64,000 nucleotides of DNA from a bacterium (GTDB taxonomy: Bacteria; Electryoneota; RPQS01), in NCBI GenBank assembly GCA_018812265.1, contig JAHJDG010000009.1, forward strand, positions 5,042 to 69,041, written 5' to 3'. Under the pieces are notes generated by a model. The model did not search any database and was not told where the DNA came from. It worked only from the letters and a program-made list of their open reading frames with translations. Shown here piece by piece: positions 13,672-30,438 of the stretch. Position 1 is the stretch's first letter; every line of letters begins with the position of its first letter. The translations under genes and the position numbers were made by a program.

Positions 13672-14064
13672 TGAGGTAGTAACGGAAAATGTTTTTTGAC
13701 CAAACGAACTTCGTTACCTAATAAAAATACTGAAATTCTGAAACGCTGAAAACCTAGCTATTTCGGGGAATTGAGCCATAGGGCGGGGAGAATTCAGGAG
13801 CAAGGGGAGCAGGCGGGAATAGTAGTCTATTTGAGACAAGATATGTTGAGGAGGCGAGAAAGTCAAGGAAAATTGAGAATACGTTCAAATGGCGGTTGGA
13901 TCGCTGTTTTGGGGGAATTGGCATTGGAGATAGTAAAGGAAGATGTTCTGAAGAGAGGCGATGAGGGAAATCCAAAATCCGAAGCAACACCCTTCTTGTA
14001 TTCCCCCCAAAACGAAGATTTGGGGGAAAGGAATGCATCAGTAGTCATCCGTCTGTAAACAGGG

Positions 14065-14160
14065 AGAGAAGCGCACTGCCGTGCGGCACTACAGCAAGGG
14101 GGAGCGCATATCCATGCGGTGCTACAAAGATTAAGGCCAGGCGAGCGCCCGGATCGGCGG
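14065..14160. repeat. Repeat cluster A: two units of a degenerate ~28-nt family, plus a ~100-nt segment homologous to 15800..15880.
   Basis: GCGCACTGCCGTGCGGCACTACAGCAAGG and GCGCATATCCATGCGGTGCTACAAAGATT, compared with GCGCACGCAGTGCAGCCCTACAAAGG and GCGCATATCCATGCGGCGCTACGAAGATT in cluster B. Confidence 0.7.
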
Positions 14161-14222
14161 TCTCAGGGGGATGTTGGGCCGGAGGCCCGACCCAGGGGAG
14201 AGAAAGATCTCAACACAGGCGG

Positions 14223-15680
14223 CTATTTCAACAATACCATTTTCCGCGCTTGAGAAAATCCTTCGCTTTGAAGAAGGTACAGATAGACTCCCGAAGCCAG
14301 AGCGGAGCCGTCGAAGGAAAGCGTGTGAATGCCGGTGGGTTGAATACCGTCTGCAAGAGTTGCGATTTGTTCGCCCAGGAGATTGAAGACGGTTAGCCTG
14401 ACGTGCGCAGCCTTGGGAAGAGCATAGGAGATTCGTGTGGACGGATTAAAGGGATTGGGGAAGTTGGGATAGAGCATGTATTGGCTCGGCGCGCTTAGGC
14501 AGATCGGTTCGCTGTCCAGTTGATCGGGACCCGTCTTGACCAGATAAAAATCGCGGGAGCCAGCCCCGAACGACTCGGTGTATCCGGCCATGATATAGCC
14601 GCCATCAGAGGTCTGCTGAACGGACTGGGCTTCATCCCAGGTGTTCCCTCCAAAGGTGCGCGTCCACAACAAGCCCCCTTGACTGTTCGTCTTGACCAGA
14701 TAGAGATCATTCGAGGCTGCACTGAGAGAATAGGTGTATCCGGCTATGATATAGCCTGCGTCGGTAGTTTGCTGAACGGAATAGCCGTACTCCCAGCTAC
14801 TCCCGCCATACGTGCGCGTCCAGAGCGTGTCGCCGAGGCTATCCGTCTTCACGAGATAGAAATCGTAGAGGCCCGCGCCAAACGACTCGGCATATCCCGC
14901 CACGATATAACCTCGGTCGGTGGTCTGCAGAACGAAAAGGGCTTCATCCCGGCTCCCCCCTCCATAGGTGCGCGTCCATACCGTATCGCCGAGGCTGTTC
15001 GTCTTCACCAGATAGAGATCATAGTTGCCCGCGCCAAAGGAAAAGGTGGTTCCCGCCAGGACATAACCACCGTCGGCGGTCTGCCGAACGGACCACGCTC
15101 CATCCGAAGCGCTCCCGCCATAGGTGCGCGTCCAGAGCGTATCGCCTTGACTATTCGTCTTCACCAGATAGACGTCGCTCCGGCCTGCACCGAAAGAGTC
15201 GGTCCATCCCGCCACGATGTAGCCGCCGTCGGAGGTTCGCTGAACGGAGTAGGCGTAATCATTGTCGGTTCCCCCGTAGGTGCGCGTCCAGAGCGTATCG
15301 CCTTGACTGTTCGTCTTCACCAGATAGAAATCGGCAAGGCCCGCGCCACGGGAGTGAGTGTATCCGGCCACGATGTAGCCGCCGTCGGAGGTCTGCTGAA
15401 TGAAATAGGCCCAATCATCGTTGGTTCCCCCATAGGTGCGCGTCCAGAGGGTGTCGCCGAGGCTATTCGTCTTGACCAGATAGAAGTCATGGCCGCCCGC
15501 CCCGAAGGATCCCGTGACTCCCGCCACGATGAAGCCACCGTCGGAGGTCTGCTGGATGGAGTAGGCCCAATCGTAGCCGCTCCCGCCAAAGGTATGTGTC
15601 CAGAGGGTGTCGGGATTGGGCTGGGCACCAGCCGTAACAAGCAAGGACAGCATGAAAACGAGAACGGTGATTGTCTTCAT
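14223..15680 (-). CDS. Secreted beta-propeller repeat protein (10 x ~48-aa SBBP-like blades) with a T9SS (Por) C-terminal sorting domain.
   Basis: Signal peptide MKTITVLVFMLSLLVTAGAQP preceded by GGGGAGG. The start was moved in from 15842 because the upstream extension lies in the repeat cluster. Ten repeats of TLWTRTYGG..D.A.SVQQTSDGGYIVAG.T.SFGAG..D.YLVKTNS.GD. CTD YPNFPNPFNPSTRISYAL...GVYLYLLQ...KMVLLK. Confidence 0.8.
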   Translation of the reverse strand: MKTITVLVFMLSLLVTAGAQPNPDTLWTHTFGGSGYDWAYSIQQTSDGGFIVAGVTGSFGAGGHDFYLVKTNSLGDTLWTRTYGGTNDDWAYFIQQTSDGGYIVAGYTHSRGAGLADFYLVKTNSQGDTLWTRTYGGTDNDYAYSVQRTSDGGYIVAGWTDSFGAGRSDVYLVKTNSQGDTLWTRTYGGSASDGAWSVRQTADGGYVLAGTTFSFGAGNYDLYLVKTNSLGDTVWTRTYGGGSRDEALFVLQTTDRGYIVAGYAESFGAGLYDFYLVKTDSLGDTLWTRTYGGSSWEYGYSVQQTTDAGYIIAGYTYSLSAASNDLYLVKTNSQGGLLWTRTFGGNTWDEAQSVQQTSDGGYIMAGYTESFGAGSRDFYLVKTGPDQLDSEPICLSAPSQYMLYPNFPNPFNPSTRISYALPKAAHVRLTVFNLLGEQIATLADGIQPTGIHTLSFDGSALASGVYLYLLQSEGFSQARKMVLLK

Positions 15681-15744
15681 GTCAGAACCTCCCCAATTGG
15701 TTAATTCCAATGTACGCACGAAATCCGCGATTGTCAACGGCGTA

Positions 15745-16175
15745 GGCGCGATGAATCGGGCCCCTACAACAACACACTGCCGTGTGGAACTACGAACGGA
15801 TAGAAGCGCACGCAGTGCAGCCCTACAAAGGCGCATATCCATGCGGCGCTACGAAGATTCGGGCTCGGCGGGCAGACGGGCACGATAAATCGGCCCCTAC
15901 AATAACACACTGCTGTGTGAAACTACGGATTCGCAGAGGCGCTCCCCCCCCTGCCCCCCCGTAAACGGAGGGGGGAAAGAATAGCCCGTTCCACGTGGAA
16001 CGGGCCGAATCCTGCACAGGAGAGGTTTGTTGCGGCTCACGCGTCGCTTCGCTCCCCCCTTGATCCCCCCATAGAATGGGGGGAGACAAGAAAAAGCACG
16101 ATGCAATCGGCTCCCGCAAGCATATCCATGCGGCGCTACCCCCCCCTGCCCCCCCGTAAACGGAGGGGGGAATAA
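15745..16175. repeat. Repeat cluster B: at least 6 degenerate ~28-nt units, a 46-bp direct repeat pair, a 22-bp perfect palindrome, and two identical 33-nt poly-C/G hairpin elements.
   Basis: 15750-15795 matches 15883-15928 at ~89% identity. CCCCCCCCTGCCCCCCCGTAAACGGAGGGGGGAA is identical at 15944-15976 and 16139-16171. GCCCGTTCCACGTGGAACGGGC lies at 15981-16002. TCCCCCC-ATAGAAT-GGGGGGA lies at ~16064-16084. Confidence 0.75.
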
Positions 16176-18062: not shown

Positions 18063-18364
18063 GATTCTGCGAAAGCGAATTGTTTGCTCACAAGTTGCAA
18101 ATATACCAAGAGTTTCTTAAGGAGTCAAGTTGCATCTTGCTCGAACATTATCGGTACTTCGTTTGCGCAGAATAACATTAACCCTAAATAAATAGATATT
18201 TAACGAGATGACGGTTGAACAAAGCAGATTCCCCTGCGAAGGTGTCTCGTCAATACGGGCACAGATATCGAGGATTTTGGGAGGCTCATTTTCTTGTGGC
18301 ATTTGTGAGCGGGAATTGCGTAGTTAAGTTGGTGTATTTCACTCAAAGAAGGAGGGTTCTCGGT

Positions 18365-19804
18365 ATGTTTGTGCTCGCAGTGGTCATCCTACTGACTCTG
18401 GCGGGATCAGCTCCAGCCCAGACCTTCAATGATTTTCTGGCCCGGCTGTACTCGCTGCCCGAATCCGAACGGCCCGCTATCGTGGACAGTTTCATGGCGG
18501 TTGTGCAGGGCTTCCCCTACCTTGAAAACGATACCGTCGCGCACTTCATCTATCGCGGCACGGCGCAGCAAGTGACCGTCCCCGGCGATGCCAATAATTG
18601 GAATCCGAATTCGTATCCGATGAATACGGTGTCGGGAACGGATTTCTGGTATCATTCCCGCGGGTTCGAGTCGGACGCGCGGCTGGACTACAAGTTCGTT
18701 TTAAACGGATCCACGTGGATTCTCGATCCTCGGAATCCGTACACGGTGGTGGGAGGATACGGTCCCAATTCGGAACTGCGGATGCCGGACTATGCGATGC
18801 CGCCCGAGATCGAGTACCGGCCGGAGATCCCGCATGGAGCTTTGCGGGACACGATGTTCTACAGCACGAATCTGGGGAATACGCGGAGAGTGCGAGTATA
18901 CACTCCCCCGGACTACAACGGATCGGAAGACTCATTCGGAATAATCCTGTTCCACGACGGGCTGGAGTATATCGCGCTGGCGAGCGCGAACAACGTGCTG
19001 GACTATCTGATTTGGCAACAGCGAATCGCACCGGTGATCGCGGTGTTCGTTCCGCCGGTCAATCGAACCGGAGAGTACGCGGGCAATCTCAAGGAAGAAT
19101 TCGGCGCTTTCATCGTGGACGAACTCATGCCGTGGGTGGACGAGGAGTTCCGGACTTTGTCGAATCTCTCTCAGCGGGCGACCTTGGGCGCATCGAACGG
19201 CGGGAATATCGCGCTGTGGCTGGGGCTTCATCACGGGGAGGTATTCGGGAGGATTGCCGCGCAGTCGAGCAACGTGGAGACCGAGATTTCGAGCGCGATT
19301 CAGAGCGGGCCCCAACTGCCGCTTGAGTTCTATCTCGATCTGGGAACCTATGATATTCCGGTGCTGATTCCACTCGTGCGGAACTTCGTTTCGATTCTCG
19401 ATGGGCGCGGGTACACGTACGAATACCACGAGTATCACGAGGGTCACAGTTGGGGGAATTGGCGAGCGCACATGGACAATGCTCTCGAGAGGTTCTTTCC
19501 GTTTCAGACGGGCACGACACCAAGCCCGCCGGCGAGCGCGCCCGGCCGAATCGAACTCGCCGTGTATCCGAATCCGTTTAACGCGGTGGCGGTGGTGCAG
19601 TTCCAGCTTCCGGTCTCCGGGCGTGTCCAGCTTGTGCTGTACAATGTGCGAGGGCAGGCGGTGAGGACGGTGACGGAAGGAGTGTTTTCGTCCGGATCAC
19701 ATCAAGTGGCCGTGGATTCCGCGGATCTTTCTACAGGGATTTACTTCCTGCGGCTTTTTGGTGCGCAGGGAAATGCGGTGCAGAAGTTGTTGCTGGTGAA
19801 GTAG
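18365..19804 (+). CDS. Secreted esterase (Esterase-D/enterochelin-esterase-like fold with an N-terminal CBM48/Ig-like domain) carrying a T9SS CTD.
   Basis: Start reset to the MFVLAVVILLTLAGSAPAQ signal peptide after AAGGAGGG. Esterase core ...GASNGGNIALWLGLHH... with the nucleophile in G-A-S-N-G. CTD YPNPFNAVAVVQF...GIYFLRLF...KLLLVK. Confidence 0.8.
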   Translation: MFVLAVVILLTLAGSAPAQTFNDFLARLYSLPESERPAIVDSFMAVVQGFPYLENDTVAHFIYRGTAQQVTVPGDANNWNPNSYPMNTVSGTDFWYHSRGFESDARLDYKFVLNGSTWILDPRNPYTVVGGYGPNSELRMPDYAMPPEIEYRPEIPHGALRDTMFYSTNLGNTRRVRVYTPPDYNGSEDSFGIILFHDGLEYIALASANNVLDYLIWQQRIAPVIAVFVPPVNRTGEYAGNLKEEFGAFIVDELMPWVDEEFRTLSNLSQRATLGASNGGNIALWLGLHHGEVFGRIAAQSSNVETEISSAIQSGPQLPLEFYLDLGTYDIPVLIPLVRNFVSILDGRGYTYEYHEYHEGHSWGNWRAHMDNALERFFPFQTGTTPSPPASAPGRIELAVYPNPFNAVAVVQFQLPVSGRVQLVLYNVRGQAVRTVTEGVFSSGSHQVAVDSADLSTGIYFLRLFGAQGNAVQKLLLVK

Positions 19805-19899
19805 CATCGGAAAGATTCCGGCGGGGTAACGCACACAAGCATCTCTGTTCGGACTATTCCTCTGTGTTTAACCCGCTCGGCGAGTAGGGATTTTAGGAA
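19805..19899 (+). promoter_or_regulatory. Copy 1 (5' portion, ~90 nt) of a leader element shared by three consecutive intergenic regions.
   Basis: GATTCCGGCGGGGTAACGC...GGACTATTCC..TTTAACCCGCTCGGCGAGTAGGGATTTTAGG aligns with the first ~95 nt of the copies at 22363 and 24208. Confidence 0.6.
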
Positions 19900-22362
19900 A
19901 TGAACATGAAGAACCTGTCTATCTTCCTGAATAAGACTATTCTACGATGCGTGCTGACGGTGGTGGTTACGGTTGTCAGCGTGTTGCCAGCGCTCGCGGG
20001 ATATGAGTTCTTGGGGAATGCGAAATCGGCGGAGACTATTCCGGGCGGAATTGCCGTGCGCTGCGACGGCGGACATACGCTGCGAATGGTTTTCGTCACA
20101 GATCACGTGCTGCGAATCACGCTCGAAAGAACGGGAGACGACGAAACGTTGCTTGACTATGCGCTGACGGATATTCCGGCGCGAGCGATTGTTCCGGTCG
20201 TTGAGGATCGCGACAGTTTGTGGATTTTACAAACGGACGAGGCGGAAGTCCACGTGAACAAGTTTCCCTGCGCGGTTGTTGTACTGGACAAGAGCGGGAA
20301 GACGGTGTGCGCGGACGAACCGGGTCTCGGCATCGGCTGGGACGGAAATGAGATCCGATGCTGGAAGACGATTGAGGCAAATGAACGATTCTTTGGATTG
20401 GGTTTGAAAGTCGGAGACGTCAACAAGCGCGGCCGCGAATGGGTGATGTGGAACAGCGACGTGCCGGCCTACGGATGGCAGAGCGATCCACTCTACGAGA
20501 GCATTCCGTTTTTTGTTGGAATCCGCGACAGCAATGCCTACGGAATCTATTTCAACAACAGCTATCGAACGCGGTTCAACATGGGGGCGGGGAATCTGCG
20601 GTATTACTCGTTCGCGGCCGAAGGTGGAGCGTTGGACTATTTCGTGATCCTCGGTCCGGAGGTTGGTAAGGTCGTGGAACGATATTCAGAACTCACGGGC
20701 CGGATGCCGATGCCGCCGCTATGGGCTTTGGGCTATCAGCAATGCCGGTGGAGCTACTACCCCGACAGCGAAGTATTGTCGCTGGCGCTGACGTTCCGGG
20801 AACGGCGAATTCCCTGCGATGCGATCTATCTCGACATTCACTACATGAACGACTACCGAGTGTTCACCTGGCATCCGAACAGATTTTCCGATCCGCGCGG
20901 TTTGTGTCAGTCGCTGCGTCGCGATGGATTCCGAATCGTGACGATCATTGATCCGGGAGTGAAGGCGGACACGAATTATCAGATTGCGCGCGAAGGTCTG
21001 GAGGGTAATCACTTCGTGCGGTATCCCGACGATCAAACATACGTCGGAGAAGTGTGGCCGGGGAAATCATACTTTCCGGATTTCAGCCGTCGAGAAACGC
21101 GAAAGTGGTGGGGAGAGTACGTGGGAGAATGGCTCGGTTATGGGGTGTCGGGAATCTGGAACGACATGAACGAGCCGGCCGTGTGGGGGCAGGCGTTCCC
21201 GACCGAAACGATCTTCAACGACGACGGCCGCATCGCATCACACAAGAAACATCACAATCTCTACGGACTGCTGATGGCACGCGCAACCTATGAAGGCGCA
21301 CGGCAATCCCAGCCGAACCAGCGTCCGTTTATCCTGACACGCGCGGGTTTTGCGGGAGTGCAGCGTTACTCCGCGGCTTGGACGGGAGACAACATTGCAG
21401 ACTGGGATCATCTGGCGCTGGGGATTCGCATGATGCAGGGAATGAGTCTGTCGGGAGTCCCGTTCGTGGGAACCGACGTGGGCGGATTCATCGGATCGCC
21501 GTCGGGCGAACTCTTCACGCGCTGGATTCAGGTGGGTTCCCTCTCCCCACTTCTCCGCACGCACTCCGAGTATCATACGGACTTGCAGGAACCGTGGTCA
21601 TATGGACGCGATCTGGAGGACATCAACCGCCGCTACATCGAGTTTCGCTATCGTCTTCTCCCCTATCTCTATTCGCTGTTCCGGGAAACGAACCGGGACG
21701 GAACACCGATCTGGCGGCCGCTCTTCTGGAACGACCAAGGAGACGTGCGAACGTTCGACGGATGGTTTCAACATCAGTTTTTCGTGGGCGAGCGGCTGCT
21801 GGCGGTTCCGGTCATTCGCGAGGGTGAAGTGTACCAGAAAGTCTATCTGCCAGAGGGGAAATGGCTGGACTGGAGTACGCATGAAGCGTATGAAGGACCG
21901 AGGGAGATCATTGTAGACGCTCCGCTCGACCGGTTGCCGTTGTTTCTGCGAGAAGGAGCGATCATTCCGATGCGGGACGTGGTGCAATACACGGGAGAGC
22001 GACCGATCTCGACGCTCTCACTGACGGTGTTTCCTTCCAATGTGCTGACTGAGTTCGAGTTGTACGAAGACGACGGAGAGACGTTCGCGTACCTGAAGGG
22101 TGGGTATCGGATCACGAACTATGCGTGTCAAAATGCGACTGATTCTGTAGTCATTTCTAAGAATATCTCTCACGACGGGTATGCTCCTGCGAAACGTGGG
22201 ACAGAAATTCTTCTTCAAGTACAATACCTACCACCTGCAGAGGTTCTACTCGATGGGCGGCCGCTGCCGGCGACATGCAGGAAGGAATACGACGCGGAGA
22301 GCCATGTGTTGACGCTTCGCTTGCAGGAAGGCGTGGTGTGGGAGAGGATTGTCGTGCGGTGA
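19900..22362 (+). CDS. Glycoside hydrolase family 31 alpha-glucosidase.
   Basis: 820 aa with a signal peptide. GH31 catalytic region GIWNDMNEPAVW (nucleophile Asp) and WTGDN. No Por CTD. Confidence 0.85.
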   Translation: MNMKNLSIFLNKTILRCVLTVVVTVVSVLPALAGYEFLGNAKSAETIPGGIAVRCDGGHTLRMVFVTDHVLRITLERTGDDETLLDYALTDIPARAIVPVVEDRDSLWILQTDEAEVHVNKFPCAVVVLDKSGKTVCADEPGLGIGWDGNEIRCWKTIEANERFFGLGLKVGDVNKRGREWVMWNSDVPAYGWQSDPLYESIPFFVGIRDSNAYGIYFNNSYRTRFNMGAGNLRYYSFAAEGGALDYFVILGPEVGKVVERYSELTGRMPMPPLWALGYQQCRWSYYPDSEVLSLALTFRERRIPCDAIYLDIHYMNDYRVFTWHPNRFSDPRGLCQSLRRDGFRIVTIIDPGVKADTNYQIAREGLEGNHFVRYPDDQTYVGEVWPGKSYFPDFSRRETRKWWGEYVGEWLGYGVSGIWNDMNEPAVWGQAFPTETIFNDDGRIASHKKHHNLYGLLMARATYEGARQSQPNQRPFILTRAGFAGVQRYSAAWTGDNIADWDHLALGIRMMQGMSLSGVPFVGTDVGGFIGSPSGELFTRWIQVGSLSPLLRTHSEYHTDLQEPWSYGRDLEDINRRYIEFRYRLLPYLYSLFRETNRDGTPIWRPLFWNDQGDVRTFDGWFQHQFFVGERLLAVPVIREGEVYQKVYLPEGKWLDWSTHEAYEGPREIIVDAPLDRLPLFLREGAIIPMRDVVQYTGERPISTLSLTVFPSNVLTEFELYEDDGETFAYLKGGYRITNYACQNATDSVVISKNISHDGYAPAKRGTEILLQVQYLPPAEVLLDGRPLPATCRKEYDAESHVLTLRLQEGVVWERIVVR

Positions 22363-22535
22363 CAGGTTCCGGCCGGATTGCGCGCGGTTACTGCGTTGTA
22401 AATGTTGGACTCTTCACGCTTAACCCGGCTCGGCAGTAGAGGGGAGATTCTGGACGCCCGCGCGCTGCTGCATAAACGACAGGTTAAACAATCGGCACGG
22501 TGCCCAGAATGACAAACGGGAGTGACTGTGGAGAG
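22363..22535 (+). promoter_or_regulatory. Copy 2 (full length, ~170 nt) of the shared leader element, upstream of the SSF symporter.
   Basis: TTCCGGCCGGATTGCGCGCGG...GCTTAACCCGGCTCGGCAGTAGAGGGGAGATTCTGGACGCCCGCGC...AGGTTAAACAATCGGC...CCCAGAATGACAA. It contains the imperfect inverted repeat ATTCTGGACGCCCGCGC / GGCACGGTGCCCAGAAT. Confidence 0.65.
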
Positions 22536-22600
22536 TCACCACCGGGAGAAGTCGGGCATTCTTTCTCTGATGGTTTTGGGATACGCTCAAGGAGACGCTC

Positions 22601-24202
<1,602 letters not shown>

Positions 24203-24207
24203 GGGAG

Positions 24208-24385
24208 CTTCCGGCCGGGTTGCGCGCGGGTTGTTGGTCGTGCGTCATTAGACATATAGCGCTTAACCCGGCTCGGCGGTGGAAGGCGATTCTGGACGCC
24301 CGCGCAGTGCCATATAAGCGATAACCTAAACAATCTGCGCGCGATGTCCAGAATGACAAGTGGAGATGTAGCAAATCAAGGAATA
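24208..24385 (+). promoter_or_regulatory. Copy 3 (full length) of the shared leader element, upstream of the GH57-clan gene.
   Basis: About 75% identical to copy 2 over ~170 nt. Inverted repeat ATTCTGGACGCC...GATGTCCAGAAT with a 9-10-bp stem. Confidence 0.65.
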
Positions 24386-24387
24386 CG

Positions 24388-27300
24388 ATGATGAGAAATG
24401 TTGCGTTGACTATGCTGATTCTGGGTGTTGCGATCGGATCTGTTGCCGCTCCGGTGCACACGACGTACATCTGGCACATGGAGCAGCCGATTTACTGGCC
24501 CGCCGCTTCCACGTGGCACGCGGGCTATCAGACGGCGTGGGAGTCCATCGTGCTGAAGGACGGCGGCGCGCCCCACCCGGAAAACGACGTGCGGGCGATT
24601 TTCTCGGTAGCCGACCGGGTGGCCGCCTATCAGTACCGACCGCGCGATGCGATACAGGCGATGACGGGAGCGGACGCGGGAGCGCAGGTGACGTACACTG
24701 GCGGATTGATCCGCAACGTGGCCAGTCTGGGAGCGGCCGGGCAGCTTGGATACACCTCCAACTGGAATCAACCGTTCATTACGGGACGCGGGTGGAATAC
24801 GAGCGGCGGCAGACCGCGACTGGAGATGACCATTATTCCCTATCACCACGCGCTGGCACCACTGGTGGATCGCGCCGTGTTGAAAAAGGAAATCCAGATC
24901 TATCAGCACGTGTATCCGCAAGTTTGGGGAAGCACGCCGCCCGCTTCGGTGGGATTCTTCCCGCCGGAGCTGGCCTCCAGCGAGCGAATCATTCCCGTGC
25001 TTGCCGAGTGCGGGATTGGTTGGTGTTTTGTCCCTTCCAATCATCTGTCACGCGCCTGCTCGAACTTTCCGTTGGTGTTGGGCACGGGCGGCGAAAACTG
25101 CGATCCGCCCAACCGGGCCGATCAGATCAATCCCTCGTCCGATCACTGGTTTTCGATGACGATCAGCCGGGGCTGCACGCCGACGGACGCCGTGCCGTTT
25201 TCGTTTCAACTCCACTGGGCGGAGCAGGTTGATCCGCAAACCGGAACTCCGGCACGGGTAATCGTCGTACCGGTGGCGATGGCGATGAGCTGGCAGGATG
25301 GATATCAAGTATACGGCGTGGGCGACGTCAACACGATTGCGCCGTGGAACGATCCGGCCCGTCCGATGCTGGTGGCCCTCGGACATGACGGCGACAACGC
25401 GTTCGGGGGCGGATACTCCTACTACATGGAGAGCGTGCCGGGCTTCACTTCGCAAGCGGTGGCACAGGGGTATGAGCCGACGACCGTTCCGGAGTATCTG
25501 GCCGATCATCCGGTGCCGACTTCGGACCTCGCGCACGTTGAAGACGGAGCCTGGATAAACGCCGACGGGGATTTCGGCAGTCCGGATTTCATCAACTGGA
25601 ACTGGCCGCCCTACAACGCGAGCGGACAATTCGACATTCCCAACGGCTGGGCGCTCGATATCCGAAACTGGGCGGTGATCACGGCGGCCACGAATCGCGT
25701 GGTGACGGCGGAAGCGGCGGCGGGCGGAAGCTCGATTGCGGCGATCCAGAATCCGACCACGACCTCGCCGGCGGCGATTGATCTGGCGTGGCACTTTCTG
25801 CTTGGATCGCTGAATTCGGGATATATGTATTACGGCTCGGCACTCGACATGGAGATGAAGCCGACGGTGGCCTGCAACATCGCGACGGACTGGGCGGATC
25901 AAGTTCTGCCGGGCGCGGGCGACCCGATTCCGCCGACGATCTGGATTTTGCAGCAGCATCCGCACAATCCGGGCGGAATCGGATTCGGATCGCTGTGGGG
26001 CTATCAGCAGACGGTGCAGCCGCGCGAGTTCTACGTATGGACGTTCATCTACGACGTTTCAGGGGTCTCTTCCGCAACGTTTTACTATCGTCTTGATGCG
26101 GACGGAATGAATCCGCTGTCATCCACGCAGAACGAGACGTTTGCGGGAGGCGGTGAAGTTTCCACGTGGCGGTCGAGGGAGATGAACCGTCGGGCATTCC
26201 CCGCCGGGAACGTATATAATGATCCGTCTATTGTGTTCGGGGAGATGCCCGACTACATCGCGGAGCAGTTCACCTACTATGTGAATGATGCCGAGATCGT
26301 GGACTCGGGCGGAGTTCTCGTAGACTACTACGTAGAAGCGATGGATTCGCTGGGGAACATCGCCCGCTCCGACATCTATCATACCTACGTGGATTCGGGG
26401 TCGGGAGGTTCGCCCGGCAATCGCGTGTGGTGGACACCCGAAGAGCCGGAAGGCGGGGAGAACGTCACGATCTATTATGATGCGGAGGCGGGGCCGCTGC
26501 CGTCGGGGACGAATCCAGTGTACATTCACATCGGGCACTCGGGATGGCAGGGGATTCTCAATCCCGATCCGCAGATGACCTACGACACCGGCGAAGAGGC
26601 TTGGCGATACACGTACTCCATTCCCTTAACGGCGACCGCGGTGGATTTCGTTTTCCAAGACGGCCTTGGTCATTGGGACAACAATAACGGCGCCGACTGG
26701 CACATCCCAACCACACCGGGCGGTTCCGGTTTCGTGATGGACGGCAGTCGCGATGGTGCCTCCGTGGTTGTGGCGGAGGCAGGCGGGATTACGCTCTGGG
26801 CAGGTTGGGACGGACGGGAATTGTACGTGGCTACGTCGCGCGTTCAGGGCACGGCCTACGATCAATTCATCTTCGTGGCTTCGCCGCCGGGAGCGATGAG
26901 ACCAGCACCGTGGGCGAAGTCAGGCCAAGTGGCGACATGGGCGGCCTATCTGGCGGAGGAAGGGAGCAACGGGTACAACGCTTGGTATGACACACAGGGG
27001 AGCGCTGTCAAAGCCGCCGGGAGCGTGCTGGAGGGAGCAGTGGACCTGACCGGAGAATTGGGGACGGTTCCGGGAGAGGTATGGCTGTGTTGCGGTAGAT
27101 ATCAGACGGCGGATGGAGGGATTTTGGCGGCTCAGGCACCGGCGGCGGTGGCTCCGGGCGGTCACATTGAGGCATCCGAATGGGTGCGATTGGTTCTGCA
27201 GCCGGACTCCCTGACAATTTCGGTGGTGGGACCGACAACCATTGAACTCCGCTGGTCTGCCGTCGTTGGTGCTACGGAATATGCCGTATTTCGGGCGGAT

Positions 27301-27405
27301 AGCCTATCCGGTAGTTTTGTTGAGGTTGGCCGAGTGTCATCCTTGTCATTTCAGGACTCGCCTGCCTCAGCAAGTGGAAAATATCAAGTAAGAGCTTGTT
27401 ATTGA
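24388..27405 (+). CDS. GH57/GH119-clan glycoside hydrolase-like enzyme (putative alpha-glucan-active) with an internal CBM25-like starch-binding domain and a C-terminal Fn3-like domain.
   Basis: GH57-like regions: YIWHMEQPIYW (region I-like), FFPPELASSE (WxxE-like nucleophile region) and LGHDGDNAFGGG (HDDGEKFG-like). CBM25-like ...VTIYYD...FVFQDGLGHWDNNNGADW. Signal peptide. Confidence 0.6.
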   Translation: MMRNVALTMLILGVAIGSVAAPVHTTYIWHMEQPIYWPAASTWHAGYQTAWESIVLKDGGAPHPENDVRAIFSVADRVAAYQYRPRDAIQAMTGADAGAQVTYTGGLIRNVASLGAAGQLGYTSNWNQPFITGRGWNTSGGRPRLEMTIIPYHHALAPLVDRAVLKKEIQIYQHVYPQVWGSTPPASVGFFPPELASSERIIPVLAECGIGWCFVPSNHLSRACSNFPLVLGTGGENCDPPNRADQINPSSDHWFSMTISRGCTPTDAVPFSFQLHWAEQVDPQTGTPARVIVVPVAMAMSWQDGYQVYGVGDVNTIAPWNDPARPMLVALGHDGDNAFGGGYSYYMESVPGFTSQAVAQGYEPTTVPEYLADHPVPTSDLAHVEDGAWINADGDFGSPDFINWNWPPYNASGQFDIPNGWALDIRNWAVITAATNRVVTAEAAAGGSSIAAIQNPTTTSPAAIDLAWHFLLGSLNSGYMYYGSALDMEMKPTVACNIATDWADQVLPGAGDPIPPTIWILQQHPHNPGGIGFGSLWGYQQTVQPREFYVWTFIYDVSGVSSATFYYRLDADGMNPLSSTQNETFAGGGEVSTWRSREMNRRAFPAGNVYNDPSIVFGEMPDYIAEQFTYYVNDAEIVDSGGVLVDYYVEAMDSLGNIARSDIYHTYVDSGSGGSPGNRVWWTPEEPEGGENVTIYYDAEAGPLPSGTNPVYIHIGHSGWQGILNPDPQMTYDTGEEAWRYTYSIPLTATAVDFVFQDGLGHWDNNNGADWHIPTTPGGSGFVMDGSRDGASVVVAEAGGITLWAGWDGRELYVATSRVQGTAYDQFIFVASPPGAMRPAPWAKSGQVATWAAYLAEEGSNGYNAWYDTQGSAVKAAGSVLEGAVDLTGELGTVPGEVWLCCGRYQTADGGILAAQAPAAVAPGGHIEASEWVRLVLQPDSLTISVVGPTTIELRWSAVVGATEYAVFRADSLSGSFVEVGRVSSLSFQDSPASASGKYQVRACY

Positions 27406-27567
27406 TAGGTTACCGGACGTAAAAGACGAGTAGATGGGCAAATTGAACGGCATTCCTGTGCAAGCCACGACGCAGGGGTTCTCCGGCTTGACCTCATGGC
27501 GAAACCGGCGGGTTCGTGCCATTGGGAAAGGGATTCAAACACAATTTGTTAGCGGGTCACTTTTCCA

Positions 27568-27595
27568 TTGACAAATTCTCAGGAATTGATAAGTT
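27568..27595 (+). promoter_or_regulatory. Candidate sigma-70-type promoter for the TonB-receptor operon.
   Basis: TTGACA-16nt-TAAGTT, about 60 nt upstream of 27658. Confidence 0.35.
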
Positions 27596-27657
27596 AATTC
27601 TATCGCAGTGCGTTCGTCGGCGGGTCTCGTTCCCGCCATGCGAAAGCAACCGATTTC

Positions 27658-30438
27658 TTGGAGTCATTGTCCATGTCCCACCGGAAATACGCCTCCTCTC
27701 TCATGGCTTTCATCATGAAGTGCATTTGGGTCGTCAGCCTGCTCGTGGCCGGCAGCGCCGTCTTTGCCGGAACGGTCGGTAAAATCGCCGGCCGGATTAC
27801 TGATGCACAAAGCGGTGATCCCGTAATCGGGGCAGCGGTGATGATCGTGGGAACGTCGCTGGGAGCAGCCACGGACTTGAAGGGCGATTTTTTCATTCTC
27901 AACGTTCCACCGGGCAAGGTAGATATCCGGGCCAGTGCTCTGGGGTATGGTACGCAGGTGATGAGCGGCATTCAAGTGATCTCGGACCAGACCGCCAATG
28001 TTGACTTCGCGTTCACCGAGGAAGCGCTGATGGGAGAAGAGGTCATCGTGTATGCCGAGCGCAAGCTGATCGAGATGGACCGGACGTTCGGAACGGCGAC
28101 GGTAGGCGCGCAGGACATTGGAGCACTGCCCGTCACCAACCTTAGTCAGGTTATTGAGATTCAAGCGGGCGTAGTGGACGGGCACTTCCGAGGCGGGCGG
28201 AGGAATGAAGTTCTTTACCTCGTGGACGGCTTGTCGGTGACGGACGCCTACGACAACTCGCAGGGCACGCAGGTGGACGACCAGATCGTCGAGGAACTGC
28301 AGGTGATTTCGGGCACATTCAACGCCGAGTACGGTCAGGCGATGTCGGGCGTGGTGAATATCGTGACCAAGGAAGGAGCGAGCGAGTACGGCGGATCGTT
28401 CAGCTCGGAATTCGGCGACTACCTTTCGAACCGTGACGACGTCTTTCTGAACATCGAAGACGTTTCGCCGCTGGCGATCCAGGACTATTCGGGCACGCTC
28501 TACGGACCGGTACCGCGTGTCGAAGGACTCTCGCTTTTCGTCAGTGGCCGTTATCAGGATGATAACGGCTGGATGTACGGGCAGAATCGTTGGAAGCCGA
28601 CGATTCAGATCGTGGAAGAAATCCTGACCACCGGCGACACCGATCCTTTCGGGGACAACAGCTATTCGCCGATGAACTACAATATTGAGAGTTGGGGTCA
28701 TGGGAAGCTCTCCTACGACGTCACCGGTAAGATCAAGCTGAATTATTCGTCGCTGTTCAGCGGCCGGACGTACAAGGACTACGCGCAAGACTGGAAGTTC
28801 GCTCCGTTCGCCACTCTTCGCCGCTACCGCACGGGGCGAACCAATTTTATCAAACTGAATCATGCCTTGACGGCGTCGGCTTTCTATGAGGTGGCCGCCG
28901 CCAACAGCTTTTCCGAATATCAGCATTATCTCTACGAAGACCCGTTCGATTCCCGCTACGTGGATCCGGCTTGGGCAGACATTGATCCGGGCTTCACGCT
29001 CAACGCCGCCGGCAATGATCTCTCGCGCTATCGGCGATGGACCAACACGAACGAAGTTCTTGGCCACATGACGTGGCAGGCCAACAAGCAGCATCTTTTC
29101 AAGTTCGGTTTCGACGTCAAGCTGCATGATCTCTTTTTCGAAGACATCAATCTGACGGACACCAGCCGGGCGGAGTTGTTCCGCATCAACGACGTCGGGA
29201 TTGACCCGTATTTCGAACCGATGATTTTGGACGTGTCATCTCCGGCGCACGACCGCTATCGCAACCATCCGTGGGAGTTTGCGCTATACGTACAGGACAA
29301 GTTTGAGGTGAAATCGCTCATCATCAACGCCGGGCTGCGGTTCGACTATTTCGAGCCGGACGGTCGCGTTCTGGCCGACGAGAAGGATCCCAACGTCTAC
29401 AATCCCCTGAGAACCGAACGAGCCGCCGATCCGCTGTCAACGCGACTCGGCTACTGGTATAAGGAGGCCACCGCCAAGTATCAGTTGTCGCCTCGGCTCG
29501 GCATCGCCTATCCGATGAGCGACCGCGGGGTGTTCCATTTTGCCTACGGTCATTTCGTGCAGCGGCCGACGTTCGAGAGGTTGTACGCCAATCCGGAGTA
29601 TGAAATGGAGTCGGGCGTGGGACTGAACACGGTGATGGGAAATCCGGACCTGAAGATGGAGGAGACCACGACGTATGAGTTTGGATTTCAGCAGGAAATC
29701 ACCGAGGACTTGGCCATCAACACCGCGCTCTTCTATCGCGATATCCGCAACCTGGTGGCAACGGATAAGATCGTCGAAACGTATTCCTCGGGAACGAAAT
29801 ATTCCCAATACGTGAACCGATCCTTCGGCGAGGTGAAGGGAATCACGCTCTCTTTCGATAAGCGCTACGCGAACAATTTCAGCTCGTTCGTGGATTATAC
29901 CTATCAAACGGCCAAGGGGGACGCTTCCGATCCGCAGTCGGCGTACAATGATCAGCGGGGGAACAATCCCCGCGAGCCGCAGCGGCAGCTGGTGCCGTTG
30001 GATTGGGATCGCCGCCACACGTTGAACGTCAGCCTTACCTATGCGACCGTCGGGCCGTCAGGCTGGGGAACCACGTTGCTTGGGAAGTACGGCAGCGGCC
30101 TGCCCTACACTCCCGAGGAGCAGGCGGGCGTGCGCACCGGTTTCGAGAATGACGGCCGCCGTCCGGATTTCTACAACCTTGATCTTTCCGTCTACAAGGA
30201 GTTTTCGCTCTCGTCGAAGTTGAAGCACAAGATCGTACTCATGCTGACCGTGCTGAACCTTCTTGACACGGACAACGAGGACAACGTATACCGCGATACG
30301 GGCCGGGCCGGCTACTCGGCGGAAGAGCGATACGCGGTGGAGGATCCTTCCTTCAACACATTGGAAGAATTCTACAACAATCCATCCCACTATTCGCGTC
30401 CGCGCATGGTGAAAGTGGGCGTCAAATACGAGTTCTGA
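27658..30438 (+). CDS. SusC-like TonB-dependent outer-membrane receptor (N-terminal carboxypeptidase-regulatory-like domain + plug + barrel).
   Basis: GRITDAQSGDPVIGAAVMIVGTSLGAATDLKGDFFIL (CarbopepD_reg). Plug EEVIVYAERK...LPVTNLSQVIEIQAGV. 926 aa. The start may be one of the internal Met (27673/27703/27715). Confidence 0.8.
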   Translation: MESLSMSHRKYASSLMAFIMKCIWVVSLLVAGSAVFAGTVGKIAGRITDAQSGDPVIGAAVMIVGTSLGAATDLKGDFFILNVPPGKVDIRASALGYGTQVMSGIQVISDQTANVDFAFTEEALMGEEVIVYAERKLIEMDRTFGTATVGAQDIGALPVTNLSQVIEIQAGVVDGHFRGGRRNEVLYLVDGLSVTDAYDNSQGTQVDDQIVEELQVISGTFNAEYGQAMSGVVNIVTKEGASEYGGSFSSEFGDYLSNRDDVFLNIEDVSPLAIQDYSGTLYGPVPRVEGLSLFVSGRYQDDNGWMYGQNRWKPTIQIVEEILTTGDTDPFGDNSYSPMNYNIESWGHGKLSYDVTGKIKLNYSSLFSGRTYKDYAQDWKFAPFATLRRYRTGRTNFIKLNHALTASAFYEVAAANSFSEYQHYLYEDPFDSRYVDPAWADIDPGFTLNAAGNDLSRYRRWTNTNEVLGHMTWQANKQHLFKFGFDVKLHDLFFEDINLTDTSRAELFRINDVGIDPYFEPMILDVSSPAHDRYRNHPWEFALYVQDKFEVKSLIINAGLRFDYFEPDGRVLADEKDPNVYNPLRTERAADPLSTRLGYWYKEATAKYQLSPRLGIAYPMSDRGVFHFAYGHFVQRPTFERLYANPEYEMESGVGLNTVMGNPDLKMEETTTYEFGFQQEITEDLAINTALFYRDIRNLVATDKIVETYSSGTKYSQYVNRSFGEVKGITLSFDKRYANNFSSFVDYTYQTAKGDASDPQSAYNDQRGNNPREPQRQLVPLDWDRRHTLNVSLTYATVGPSGWGTTLLGKYGSGLPYTPEEQAGVRTGFENDGRRPDFYNLDLSVYKEFSLSSKLKHKIVLMLTVLNLLDTDNEDNVYRDTGRAGYSAEERYAVEDPSFNTLEEFYNNPSHYSRPRMVKVGVKYEF

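Follow-up and report, generated by a model that had tools for sequence, protein, structure and literature searches.

The three spacers that follow the esterase, GH31 and SSF genes of an alpha-glucan utilisation operon very probably carry insertions akin to repetitive extragenic palindromic (REP) sequences and REP doublets forming hairpins (REPINs), that is, short, dispersed, extragenic imperfect palindromes, rather than a dedicated regulatory leader. The operon belongs to a co-directional alpha-glucan utilisation cluster in a 64,000-nt stretch of contig JAHJDG010000009.1 (positions 5,042 to 69,041 of the forward strand; assembly GCA_018812265.1, a bacterium of the GTDB lineage Electryoneota; RPQS01), referred to as the window, with a G+C content of 57.9%. 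Homologous non-coding sequence begins 4-12 nt past the stop codon of each of the three genes, as an initial annotation based on the letters alone had recognised; the gene identities it proposed (esterase, GH31, SSF and GH57) also prove to be right by Pfam. The repeated sequence is made up of two hairpin-forming extragenic families, H1 and H2, which are dispersed in related genomes and were inserted into this operon in one lineage. The occurrence of the modules at many unrelated positions and their absence from the same operon of relatives therefore identify them as ordinary repetitive DNA and not as a sugar-sensing switch.

The presumed single leader element is a composite of two adjacent but independent hairpin modules, H1 and H2, joined in the GH31–SSF spacer by two further modules, M3 and M4. 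The core of H1 reads TTCCGGCCGGGTTGCGC, a variable loop of about 37 nt, and GCGCTTAACCCGGCTCGGCG; in its extended form, (A/G)ATTCCGGCCGGGTTGCGC, variable loop, GCGCTTAACCCGGCTCGGCG(A/G), it constitutes a single hairpin of about 16 bp with small bulges. Its ends, (A)TTCCGG and C(T/G)CGGCG(A/G), are invariant, and its loop, typically about 36-40 nt, is poorly conserved. H2 is a second hairpin with the arms GAGATTCTGGACGCCCGC and GTCCAGAATGACA around a variable loop; its family form, GAGATTCTGGAC...GTCCAGAATGACA, is built like H1 and can be extended to G(A/G)GATTCTGGACGCCCGC, variable loop, GCGGTGTCCAGAATGACA(A/G). Neither module carries the GTAG head of classical REPs. The genes and modules of the operon are as follows:

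18215-19804 (stop codon 19802-19804): esterase with a type IX secretion system (T9SS) sorting tail, by Pfam
19813-19884, + strand: H1 copy 1, decayed, AGATTCCGGCGGGGTAACGCACAC...GTGTTTAACCC-GCTCGGCGAG; profile hidden Markov model (HMM) E 8e-7, covariance model 43.7 bits
19900-22362 (stop codon 22360-22362): GH31, by Pfam
22364-22437, + strand: H1 copy 2; profile HMM E 1.4e-13, covariance model 58.2 bits
22444-22515, + strand: H2 in the GH31–SSF spacer, GAGATTCTGGACGCCCGC...GGTGCCCAGAATGACAA; arm matches and family hairpins
22522-22546, + strand: M3, a small hairpin repeat, GTGACTGTGGAGAGTCACCACCGGG; one mismatch to a repeat seen six times in loci of JAQTRJ01 (STB_160)
22563-22593, + strand: M4, ...CTCTGATGGTTTTGGGATACGCTC...; exact match of its core TTTGGGATACGCTC
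22601-24202 (stop codon 24200-24202): SSF symporter, by Pfam
24206-24280, + strand: H1 copy 3, intact; profile HMM E 6e-14, covariance model 65.8 bits
24286-24359, + strand: H2 in the SSF–GH57 spacer, intact, GCGATTCTGGACGCCCGCGCAG...CTGCGCGCGATGTCCAGAATGACAA; arm matches and family hairpins
24388-27405: GH57-like protein, by Pfam
27658-30438: TonB-dependent receptor of the same cluster

Copy 1 thus consists of H1 only, copy 2 of H1, H2, M3 and M4, and copy 3 of H1 and H2. The unit common to copies 2 and 3 (22364-22515 and 24206-24359) aligns over about 153-155 nt at 74% identity (blastn, E 3e-24); the proposed length of about 170 nt comes down to about 153 nt. Copy 1 is shorter, as had been noted; rather than being the 5' part of one element, however, it holds nothing but a decayed H1. 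It sets in 9-12 nt past the esterase stop codon, has lost one stem pair from both arms relative to the consensus (GCCGGG/CCCGGC to GCGGGG/CCCGC) and has exchanged the inner stem GCGC/GCGC for CACAC/GUGU. Copy 2, which starts 2-4 nt past the GH31 stop codon, carries a G-to-A mismatch in its main stem; copy 3 starts 4-6 nt past the SSF stop codon. The inverted repeat ATTCTGGAC...GTCCAGAAT, attributed before to every copy, amounts to 9 bp in copy 3 and 7 bp in copy 2 and is missing from copy 1; a long-range inverted repeat that had been overlooked, CCGGCCGGGTT...AACCCGGCTCGG, is common to all three. Between copies 2 and 3 the H1 loops resemble each other no more than they resemble the loops of copies in other genomes, and the 74% identity of the two copies is therefore carried by the arms and by the H2 loop, where both share the subfamily motif TAAACAATC. 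Downstream, M4 (...TGATGGTTTTGGGATACGCTC) lies directly 5' of the SSF ribosome-binding site and ATG (22601), and H2 of the SSF–GH57 spacer ends 28 nt 5' of the GH57 ATG (24388). Ribosome-binding sites in the window remain beside their ATGs, and the repeats occupy the gap from stop codon to ribosome-binding site.

Within the window the repeat is confined to these spacers. Its diagnostic motifs do not occur elsewhere in the 64 kb (chance expectation 0.04-0.2), and a profile HMM built from copies of other genomes only recovers the three H1 copies, including copy 1, which is below BLAST detection, and no other match under E 0.1. A covariance model yields the identical three matches. In all, the window contains three H1 and two H2 copies.

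H1 is dispersed in related genomes. Species-representative genomes, scanned for TTCCGGC followed after 35-60 nt by TTAACCCG(N)CTCGGC, yielded 103 stretches, of which about 25 are chance matches spread over unrelated taxa. The 81 stretches with full H1 arms all come from 11 metagenome-assembled genomes (MAGs), led by JAHIZR01 (31) and JAZDIW01 (10) and followed by JAUXGA01, JAQTRJ01, JAPKYT01 and CAZGVT01 (7 each); one of the 11, the MAG RPQS01, is labelled 'candidate division KSB1'. Relaxed Hamming matching of both arms, allowing up to 3 mismatches per arm, raised the yield to at least 110 copies. The fetched loci, about 0.7 Mb in all, come from 14 related MAGs labelled KSB1 or 'bacterium', and JAHIZR01 accounts for 46 of the copies. 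A scan of viral contigs gave one match, a chance one. The H1, H2 and REP families found in RPQS01, labelled KSB1, and in the unclassified 'bacterium' MAGs are also present in CAZGVT01, CBDVDL01 and CAYORN01, three MAGs labelled 'uncultured Alphaproteobacteria'; these taxonomic labels look doubtful.

H1 copies are overwhelmingly intergenic, and the few that overlap long open reading frames (ORFs) mostly do so at over-extended ORF starts. Among copies whose context was assessed (greedy ORF calls, ORFs of at least 150 aa), the two flanking genes lie both on the same strand as H1 in 25 cases and both on the opposite strand in 27, and are convergent in 13 and divergent in 2; hence there is no strand bias, and gene 3' ends are preferred. 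Such a distribution is known for REPs. Many copies in other genomes begin 1-22 nt past a stop codon, and 20 stop-adjacent neighbour genes assigned by Pfam include those for an Lpd-like oxidoreductase, a DEAD-box helicase, an amylase, ManC and HtpG; trigger factor, a SpoU methylase, a porin, an M14 peptidase and AhpC-like proteins are further neighbours. Since these genes are functionally unrelated, H1 has no link to glucan use. Conservation extends from about 3 nt 5' of TTCCGG to about 2 nt 3' of CTCGGCG. No target-site duplication of 2-6 bp was found for the H1 copies in the fetched loci beyond what the conserved element ends explain, and no parent insertion sequence was found in these loci.

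The orthologous loci of relatives provide the complementary evidence. The closest homologues of the SSF protein are 80-85% identical, come from genomes labelled Calditrichota or KSB1, and retain the synteny of esterase, GH31 and SSF (and GH57). At four such loci, L105 to L108, the spacers measure:

L105: esterase–GH31 12 nt; GH31–SSF 43 nt; SSF–next gene 19 nt
L106: GH31–SSF 15 nt; SSF–next gene 251 nt
L107: GH31–SSF 76 nt; SSF–next gene 30 nt
L108: GH31–SSF 40 nt; SSF–next gene 3 nt

None of H1, H2 and M3 is detectable at any of the four, contrary to the conservation expected in orthologous loci if the element were a leader of this operon. Because L107 belongs to RPQS01, which carries H1 at three other loci, the family is present in that genome while the orthologous spacers are empty. 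The empty spacers thus identify the copies in the window as lineage-specific insertions into an otherwise tightly packed alpha-glucan operon. The 251-nt spacer 3' of the SSF orthologue in L106 (7603-7853) contains a GTAG-type REP (GTAGTGCTGGACGGCAGTCCGC) and not H1 or H2; a different repeat was therefore inserted independently at the same spacer.

The pairing of the arms is conserved in these families. Whole spacers are no more stable than shuffled sequence (fold z-scores +1.4 and -0.4), but the separate modules differ: H1 scores -1.0 in copy 1, +0.7 in copy 2 and -2.7 in copy 3 (minimum free energy -35.3 kcal/mol), H2 scores -1.4 in copy 2 and -4.3 in copy 3 (-27.5 kcal/mol), and M3 scores -2.4. 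The value of +0.7 shows the hairpin of copy 2 to be weakened; copies 1 and 2 are decayed and copy 3 is intact. Across 110 copies the median H1 z-score is -2.2, and in an alignment of 80 copies paired cells make up 95%, compared with 24-47% when the arms are slid as a control. RNAalifold proposed a structure for the H1 alignment in a shifted register with G-U pairs; the register obtained from single-sequence folds was tested instead. The inner stem covaries in the 80-copy alignment, with exchanges of GC to AU or CG. It is important to point out that the search pattern predetermines the outer stem, so that the evidence from covariation is limited to the inner stem and to the copies found by relaxed matching; among the latter there are compensated outer-stem changes (CAGGG/CCCTG, and GGTCGGG/CCCGACT twice) as well as some uncompensated ones. 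H1 loops range from 4 to 48 nt, mostly 36-40, with a between-genome median identity of 0.54, against at least 90% conservation of the arms. Every H2 copy folds as a hairpin, and a compensatory change from ATTCTGGA/TCCAGAAT to ATTCCGGA/TCCGGAAT is found in three copies; the inner stems of H2 can be wholly different yet complementary.

A family of short hairpins extends this picture. Its members open with aTTCCGG and close with C(T/G)CGGCG, and between these ends a 7-bp stem and its complement flank a tetraloop of AGGA, GGGA or AAGA; they thus keep the ends of H1 while their stem sequences differ completely. A contiguous stem of at least 5 bp is present in 25 of 68 candidates with TTCCGG...CKCGGCR ends, where chance would give about 0.7%. 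Stems are kept by compensatory changes, and since the stem sequence can be replaced with complementarity retained, selection acts on pairing and not on the DNA sequence as such. On the minus strand of L043 (offsets 267-468), a short-form REP (ATTCCGG-CAGGG-loop-CCCTG-CTCGGCGGAA) is repeated in tandem five times, about every 40 nt.

The modules also occur independently of each other. H2 occurs about 20 times in the fetched loci, alone, 5' of H1, 3' of H1, or nested in the H1 loop. The nested arrangement is found at L008 (minus strand, near offset 532) and L096 (plus strand, near 2913) with near-identical junctions, which indicates either that one repeat was inserted into another or that the composite itself was copied. 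The order H1 then H2 recurs in L102 and, with a short-form H1, in the metagenome contigs L112 and L113, the two real cases among 11 matches of a metagenome scan for the H1–H2 junction, the rest being chance matches in coding sequence. In JAHIZR01, JAUXGA01 and JAZDIW01, M4 trails H1 by a constant interval of about 20 nt and often lies directly 5' of start codons. M3 and M4 are separate repeat families. The observed orders are H1-H2, H2-H1, H1-M4 and H1-H2-M3-M4, the last of them in the GH31–SSF spacer, and together the modules form mosaics resembling the bacterial interspersed mosaic elements (BIMEs).

A candidate for the enzyme that spread such repeats is encoded in JAHIZR01, the MAG richest in H1. 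A tblastn search with an E. coli YafM sequence served as a lead only, and its matches were verified with Pfam and NCBIfam. The ORF at L082:2892-3392 matches NCBIfam NF047646, the REP-associated tyrosine transposase (RAYT), with 87.9 bits (cut-off 80) and also matches Pfam Y1_Tnp. Hairpin repeats enclose it in two nested, inverted pairs, GCCGCGGCAGGTGTCTTCACCTGCCCGG and GGGGCATAGGAAGACCTATGCCGCCGCGAG (L082:2731-3471); the inner pair, CCGG-GCAGGTG-AAGA-CACCTGC-CGCGGC, belongs to the short-form superfamily with H1-type ends. Two H1 copies are located about 730-900 nt 5' of this gene on the same contig, and an Arg/Pro-rich ORF of 156 aa without a Pfam match lies between them and the RAYT gene. A weaker RAYT-like ORF in L010 (64 bits on NF047646, under the cut-off) is flanked by arrays of GTAGCCGCGCACGGCAGTGCGA. 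A RAYT, a Y1 HUH enzyme of the IS200/IS605 type, would have spread the repeats by acting on hairpins in single-stranded DNA, a mode of action expected to leave no target-site duplication. Mobilisation by a RAYT fits because duplications are lacking, the ends form hairpins, and related repeats flank the RAYT gene.

The closest known systems are the REP/REPIN and RAYT pairs of E. coli, Pseudomonas and Stenotrophomonas. By definition, a REPIN has two REPs in inverted orientation on either side of a weakly conserved spacer that retains the hairpin, and it is mobilised by a RAYT whose own gene lies between REPs (Bertels & Rainey, PMC3337134; PMC3116915); with regard to the spacers, 'No two REPINs are identical' (PMC3337134). 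Like H1 and H2, these are short extragenic imperfect palindromes present in tens to hundreds of copies, and like H1 they combine conserved inverted arms and a poorly conserved hairpin-keeping spacer with a lack of target-site duplication. As here, several families coexist in one genome, and a single-copy Y1 transposase gene lies between inverted REPs, as the RAYT gene of L082 does between short REPs that have H1-type ends but are not H1. They differ in having a GTAG head where H1 has TTCCGG and CKCGGCG ends, in consisting of two clearly palindromic REPs where H1 is one long hairpin with a large loop, and in their host range, Proteobacteria there and an uncultured lineage of the KSB1/Calditrichota type here; moreover, H1 has not been seen directly flanking a RAYT. 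BIMEs of E. coli, such as the REP cluster of malE-malF, are likewise built of palindromic units and linkers in variable order within transcribed operon spacers, and malE-malF is part of a sugar-utilisation operon, as here, although their sequences are unrelated to H1 and H2. Binding of IHF or gyrase and stabilisation of mRNA are documented for BIMEs. Enterobacterial repetitive intergenic consensus sequences (ERIC, also called intergenic repeat units, IRU) and the pneumococcal BOX elements are transcribed intergenic repeats of uncertain function, either imperfect palindromes about 100-150 nt long or modular in build (boxA-B-C), but show no sequence similarity to H1 or H2, in keeping with the lack of any Rfam match up to E 10. 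Neither ERIC nor BOX is known to be linked to a transposase; for the present families a link to a RAYT is plausible. A literature search found no paper with these motifs and none combining KSB1 with repeats or transposases.

Several other origins and functions have been weighed against REP/REPIN-like insertion. The initial annotation favoured a locus-specific cis-regulatory leader, and a riboswitch-like sugar sensor or a terminator-antiterminator for each gene of the operon would account for sense elements directly past the stop codons of three consecutive spacers. We nevertheless give this reading very little credence, as the elements are missing at four orthologous loci, their modules recur in either orientation at over 100 loci unrelated to this one, the loops of copies 2 and 3 resemble each other no more than they resemble those of other genomes, the whole spacers fold like shuffled sequence, no U-tract is found 3' of the stems, and an Rfam search of the spacers returned nothing relevant at the gathering score or up to E 10. 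An array of double-stranded DNA operators for a locus regulator, or for a global or nucleoid-associated protein, is very improbable too: the palindromic half-sites CCGGGTT...AACCCGG are highly conserved, but they are about 45 nt apart, the short forms swap the entire stem sequence with complementarity kept, and the sites lie beside unrelated genes and favour 3' ends over divergent promoter regions (13 vs 2).

The small miniature inverted-repeat transposable element (MITE) listed among the earlier candidates was correct insofar as the modules are dispersed, non-autonomous repeats. A classical MITE, which derives by deletion from a DDE-type insertion sequence and is marked by terminal inverted repeats and target-site duplications, would share with H1 and H2 the small size, the lack of coding capacity, the multi-copy intergenic distribution and the nested insertions (H2 inside H1), and elements such as Correia/NEMIS are likewise small, non-autonomous, dispersed, often co-transcribed and able to alter mRNA processing. 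In Correia elements the terminal inverted repeats measure 26 bp and the duplication is TA. Such repeats and duplications were not found for H1 or H2, where the conserved ends pair as the base of an asymmetrically bulged hairpin, the superfamily keeps only TTCCGG and CKCGGCG while its stems covary, and the transposase beside related repeats is of the Y1/RAYT and not the DDE type; a MITE is therefore very improbable, and REP/REPIN the better match. Integron attC sites following gene cassettes bear a superficial likeness in their imperfect inverted arms with bulged bases, variable centre and position just past stop codons, and the minus-strand GTTAAGC fits GTTRRRY. An attC site is defined by 5'-RYYYAAC (R'') ... 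GTTRRRY (R')-3'. The motif order of H1 is the reverse: whichever strand is read, GTT belongs to the 5' arm and AAC to the 3' arm. In addition, H1 copies run with or against their neighbouring genes, some lie between convergent genes and some next to housekeeping genes, and the genes flanked here are large, syntenic operon members in relatives and not cassettes, so that attC identity, judged by motif order, orientation and gene context, is scarcely credible.

The hairpins would be present in the operon mRNA and might, as a side effect, alter how this mRNA decays or how translation of the upstream gene terminates. It is possible, if somewhat unlikely, that repeats of selfish or neutral origin were in this way co-opted as RNA hairpins that tune relative expression, as a barrier to 3'-5' exonucleases for the upstream segments, by ribosome stalling near stop codons, or as a partial attenuator; this is compatible with REP/REPIN-like insertion and adds a function to it. 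Stable stems that start 4-12 nt past the stop codons, the 1-22 nt distances and preference for gene 3' ends elsewhere, and the clustering of three sense copies would all suit such a role, and for REPs of E. coli both transcript stabilisation and the stalling of ribosomes shortly before the termination codon are reported (PMC12306157). The decayed stems of copies 1 and 2 (z-scores -1.0 and +0.7) speak against a maintained function, as does the fact that the same operon works with spacers of 3-76 nt in relatives.

The interpretation as REP/REPIN-like insertions has its own difficulties. All three H1 copies in the window are in sense orientation and occupy consecutive spacers of one operon, a clustering with p of about 0.008 under uniform, independent insertion into 27 spacers, which also counts in favour of a leader; local transposition, duplication of the H1–H2 composite or gene conversion are the simplest explanations, and selection for a local function also has room. 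No RAYT gene is present in the 64-kb window. The REPs directly flanking the one good RAYT gene are short-form relatives and not H1, for which reason this RAYT is only a candidate for the cognate transposase, and H2 is without any link to a RAYT. The lack of a GTAG head in H1 is a further departure from classical REPs; this head is typical of REP classes but not universal. Finally, the count for the source organism (three H1, two H2) covers 64 kb, and the context statistics rest on crude greedy ORF calling.

Taking REP/REPIN-like insertion as the starting point, a more specific scenario can be put forward tentatively. H1 and the short hairpins with its ends might constitute an undescribed, RAYT-mobilised REP superfamily of KSB1/Calditrichota-type bacteria, with TTCCGG/CKCGGCG flanks in place of GTAG, which coexists with GTAG-REPs and H2, grows long variable loops and takes up nested insertions; the H1–H2 composite might have spread locally through the alpha-glucan operon and might now set the relative expression of its genes.

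Further dispersed repeats occur upstream in the window. At least six GTAG-headed REP-like palindromes (GTAGNNCCRCAYGG..TGYGY), where 0.02 are expected by chance, lie on the minus strand and belong to the family of the L010 GTAGCCGCGCACGGCAGTGCGA arrays and are also found in JAHIZR, JAUXGA, JAZDIW and JAPKYT loci; the L010 GTAG-REPs form a 41-nt array comparable to that of L043. Hairpin repeats of poly-C/poly-G (CCCCCCCCTGCCCCCCCGTAAACGGAGGGGGGAA) represent another dispersed family, with 24 matches in the fetched loci of related MAGs. The positions in the window are:

14002-14030: poly-C/poly-G hairpin repeat
14071-14092: GTAG-headed palindrome
14104-14125: GTAG-headed palindrome
15772-15793: GTAG-headed palindrome
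15831-15852: GTAG-headed palindrome
15905-15926: GTAG-headed palindrome
15944-15977: poly-C/poly-G hairpin repeat
16054-16086: poly-C/poly-G hairpin repeat
16118-16139: GTAG-headed palindrome
16139-16172: poly-C/poly-G hairpin repeat

Two sequences at 15855-15875 and 14127-14162 (AGATTCGGGCTCGGCGGG and AAGATTAAGGCCAGGCGAGCGCCCGGATCGGCGG), which look like collapsed or degenerate H1-type ends, may be remnants of excision or decay. Six tandem 156-nt repeats of 70-73% identity at 14532-15611 lie inside a minus-strand ORF (14223-15842) for a DUF5122 beta-propeller protein with a T9SS sorting tail; they are therefore coding and unrelated to the spacer finding. The 252-nt spacer between GH57 and the TonB-dependent receptor (27406-27657) contains none of the repeat families and may be the site of the true promoter or regulatory region for the downstream genes.

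Overall, the kind of element is well known, and the families are new and reside in a little-studied lineage. With them, the known range of REP/REPIN-like repeats comes to include the KSB1/Calditrichota part of the Fibrobacteres–Chlorobi–Bacteroidetes (FCB) group, a RAYT being their plausible partner. Future scans of such genomes can mask H1, H2, M3, M4, GTAG-REPs and poly-C hairpins. The case also calls for caution, as 'conserved non-coding elements' repeated at one locus of a compact uncultured genome can be REP-type repeats and not regulators; two quick checks, for dispersal in relatives and for empty orthologous sites, settle such cases. If the hairpins of the alpha-glucan operon were co-opted, they would provide a second example, beside malE-malF of E. 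coli, of REP-tuned expression in a glucan-utilisation operon.

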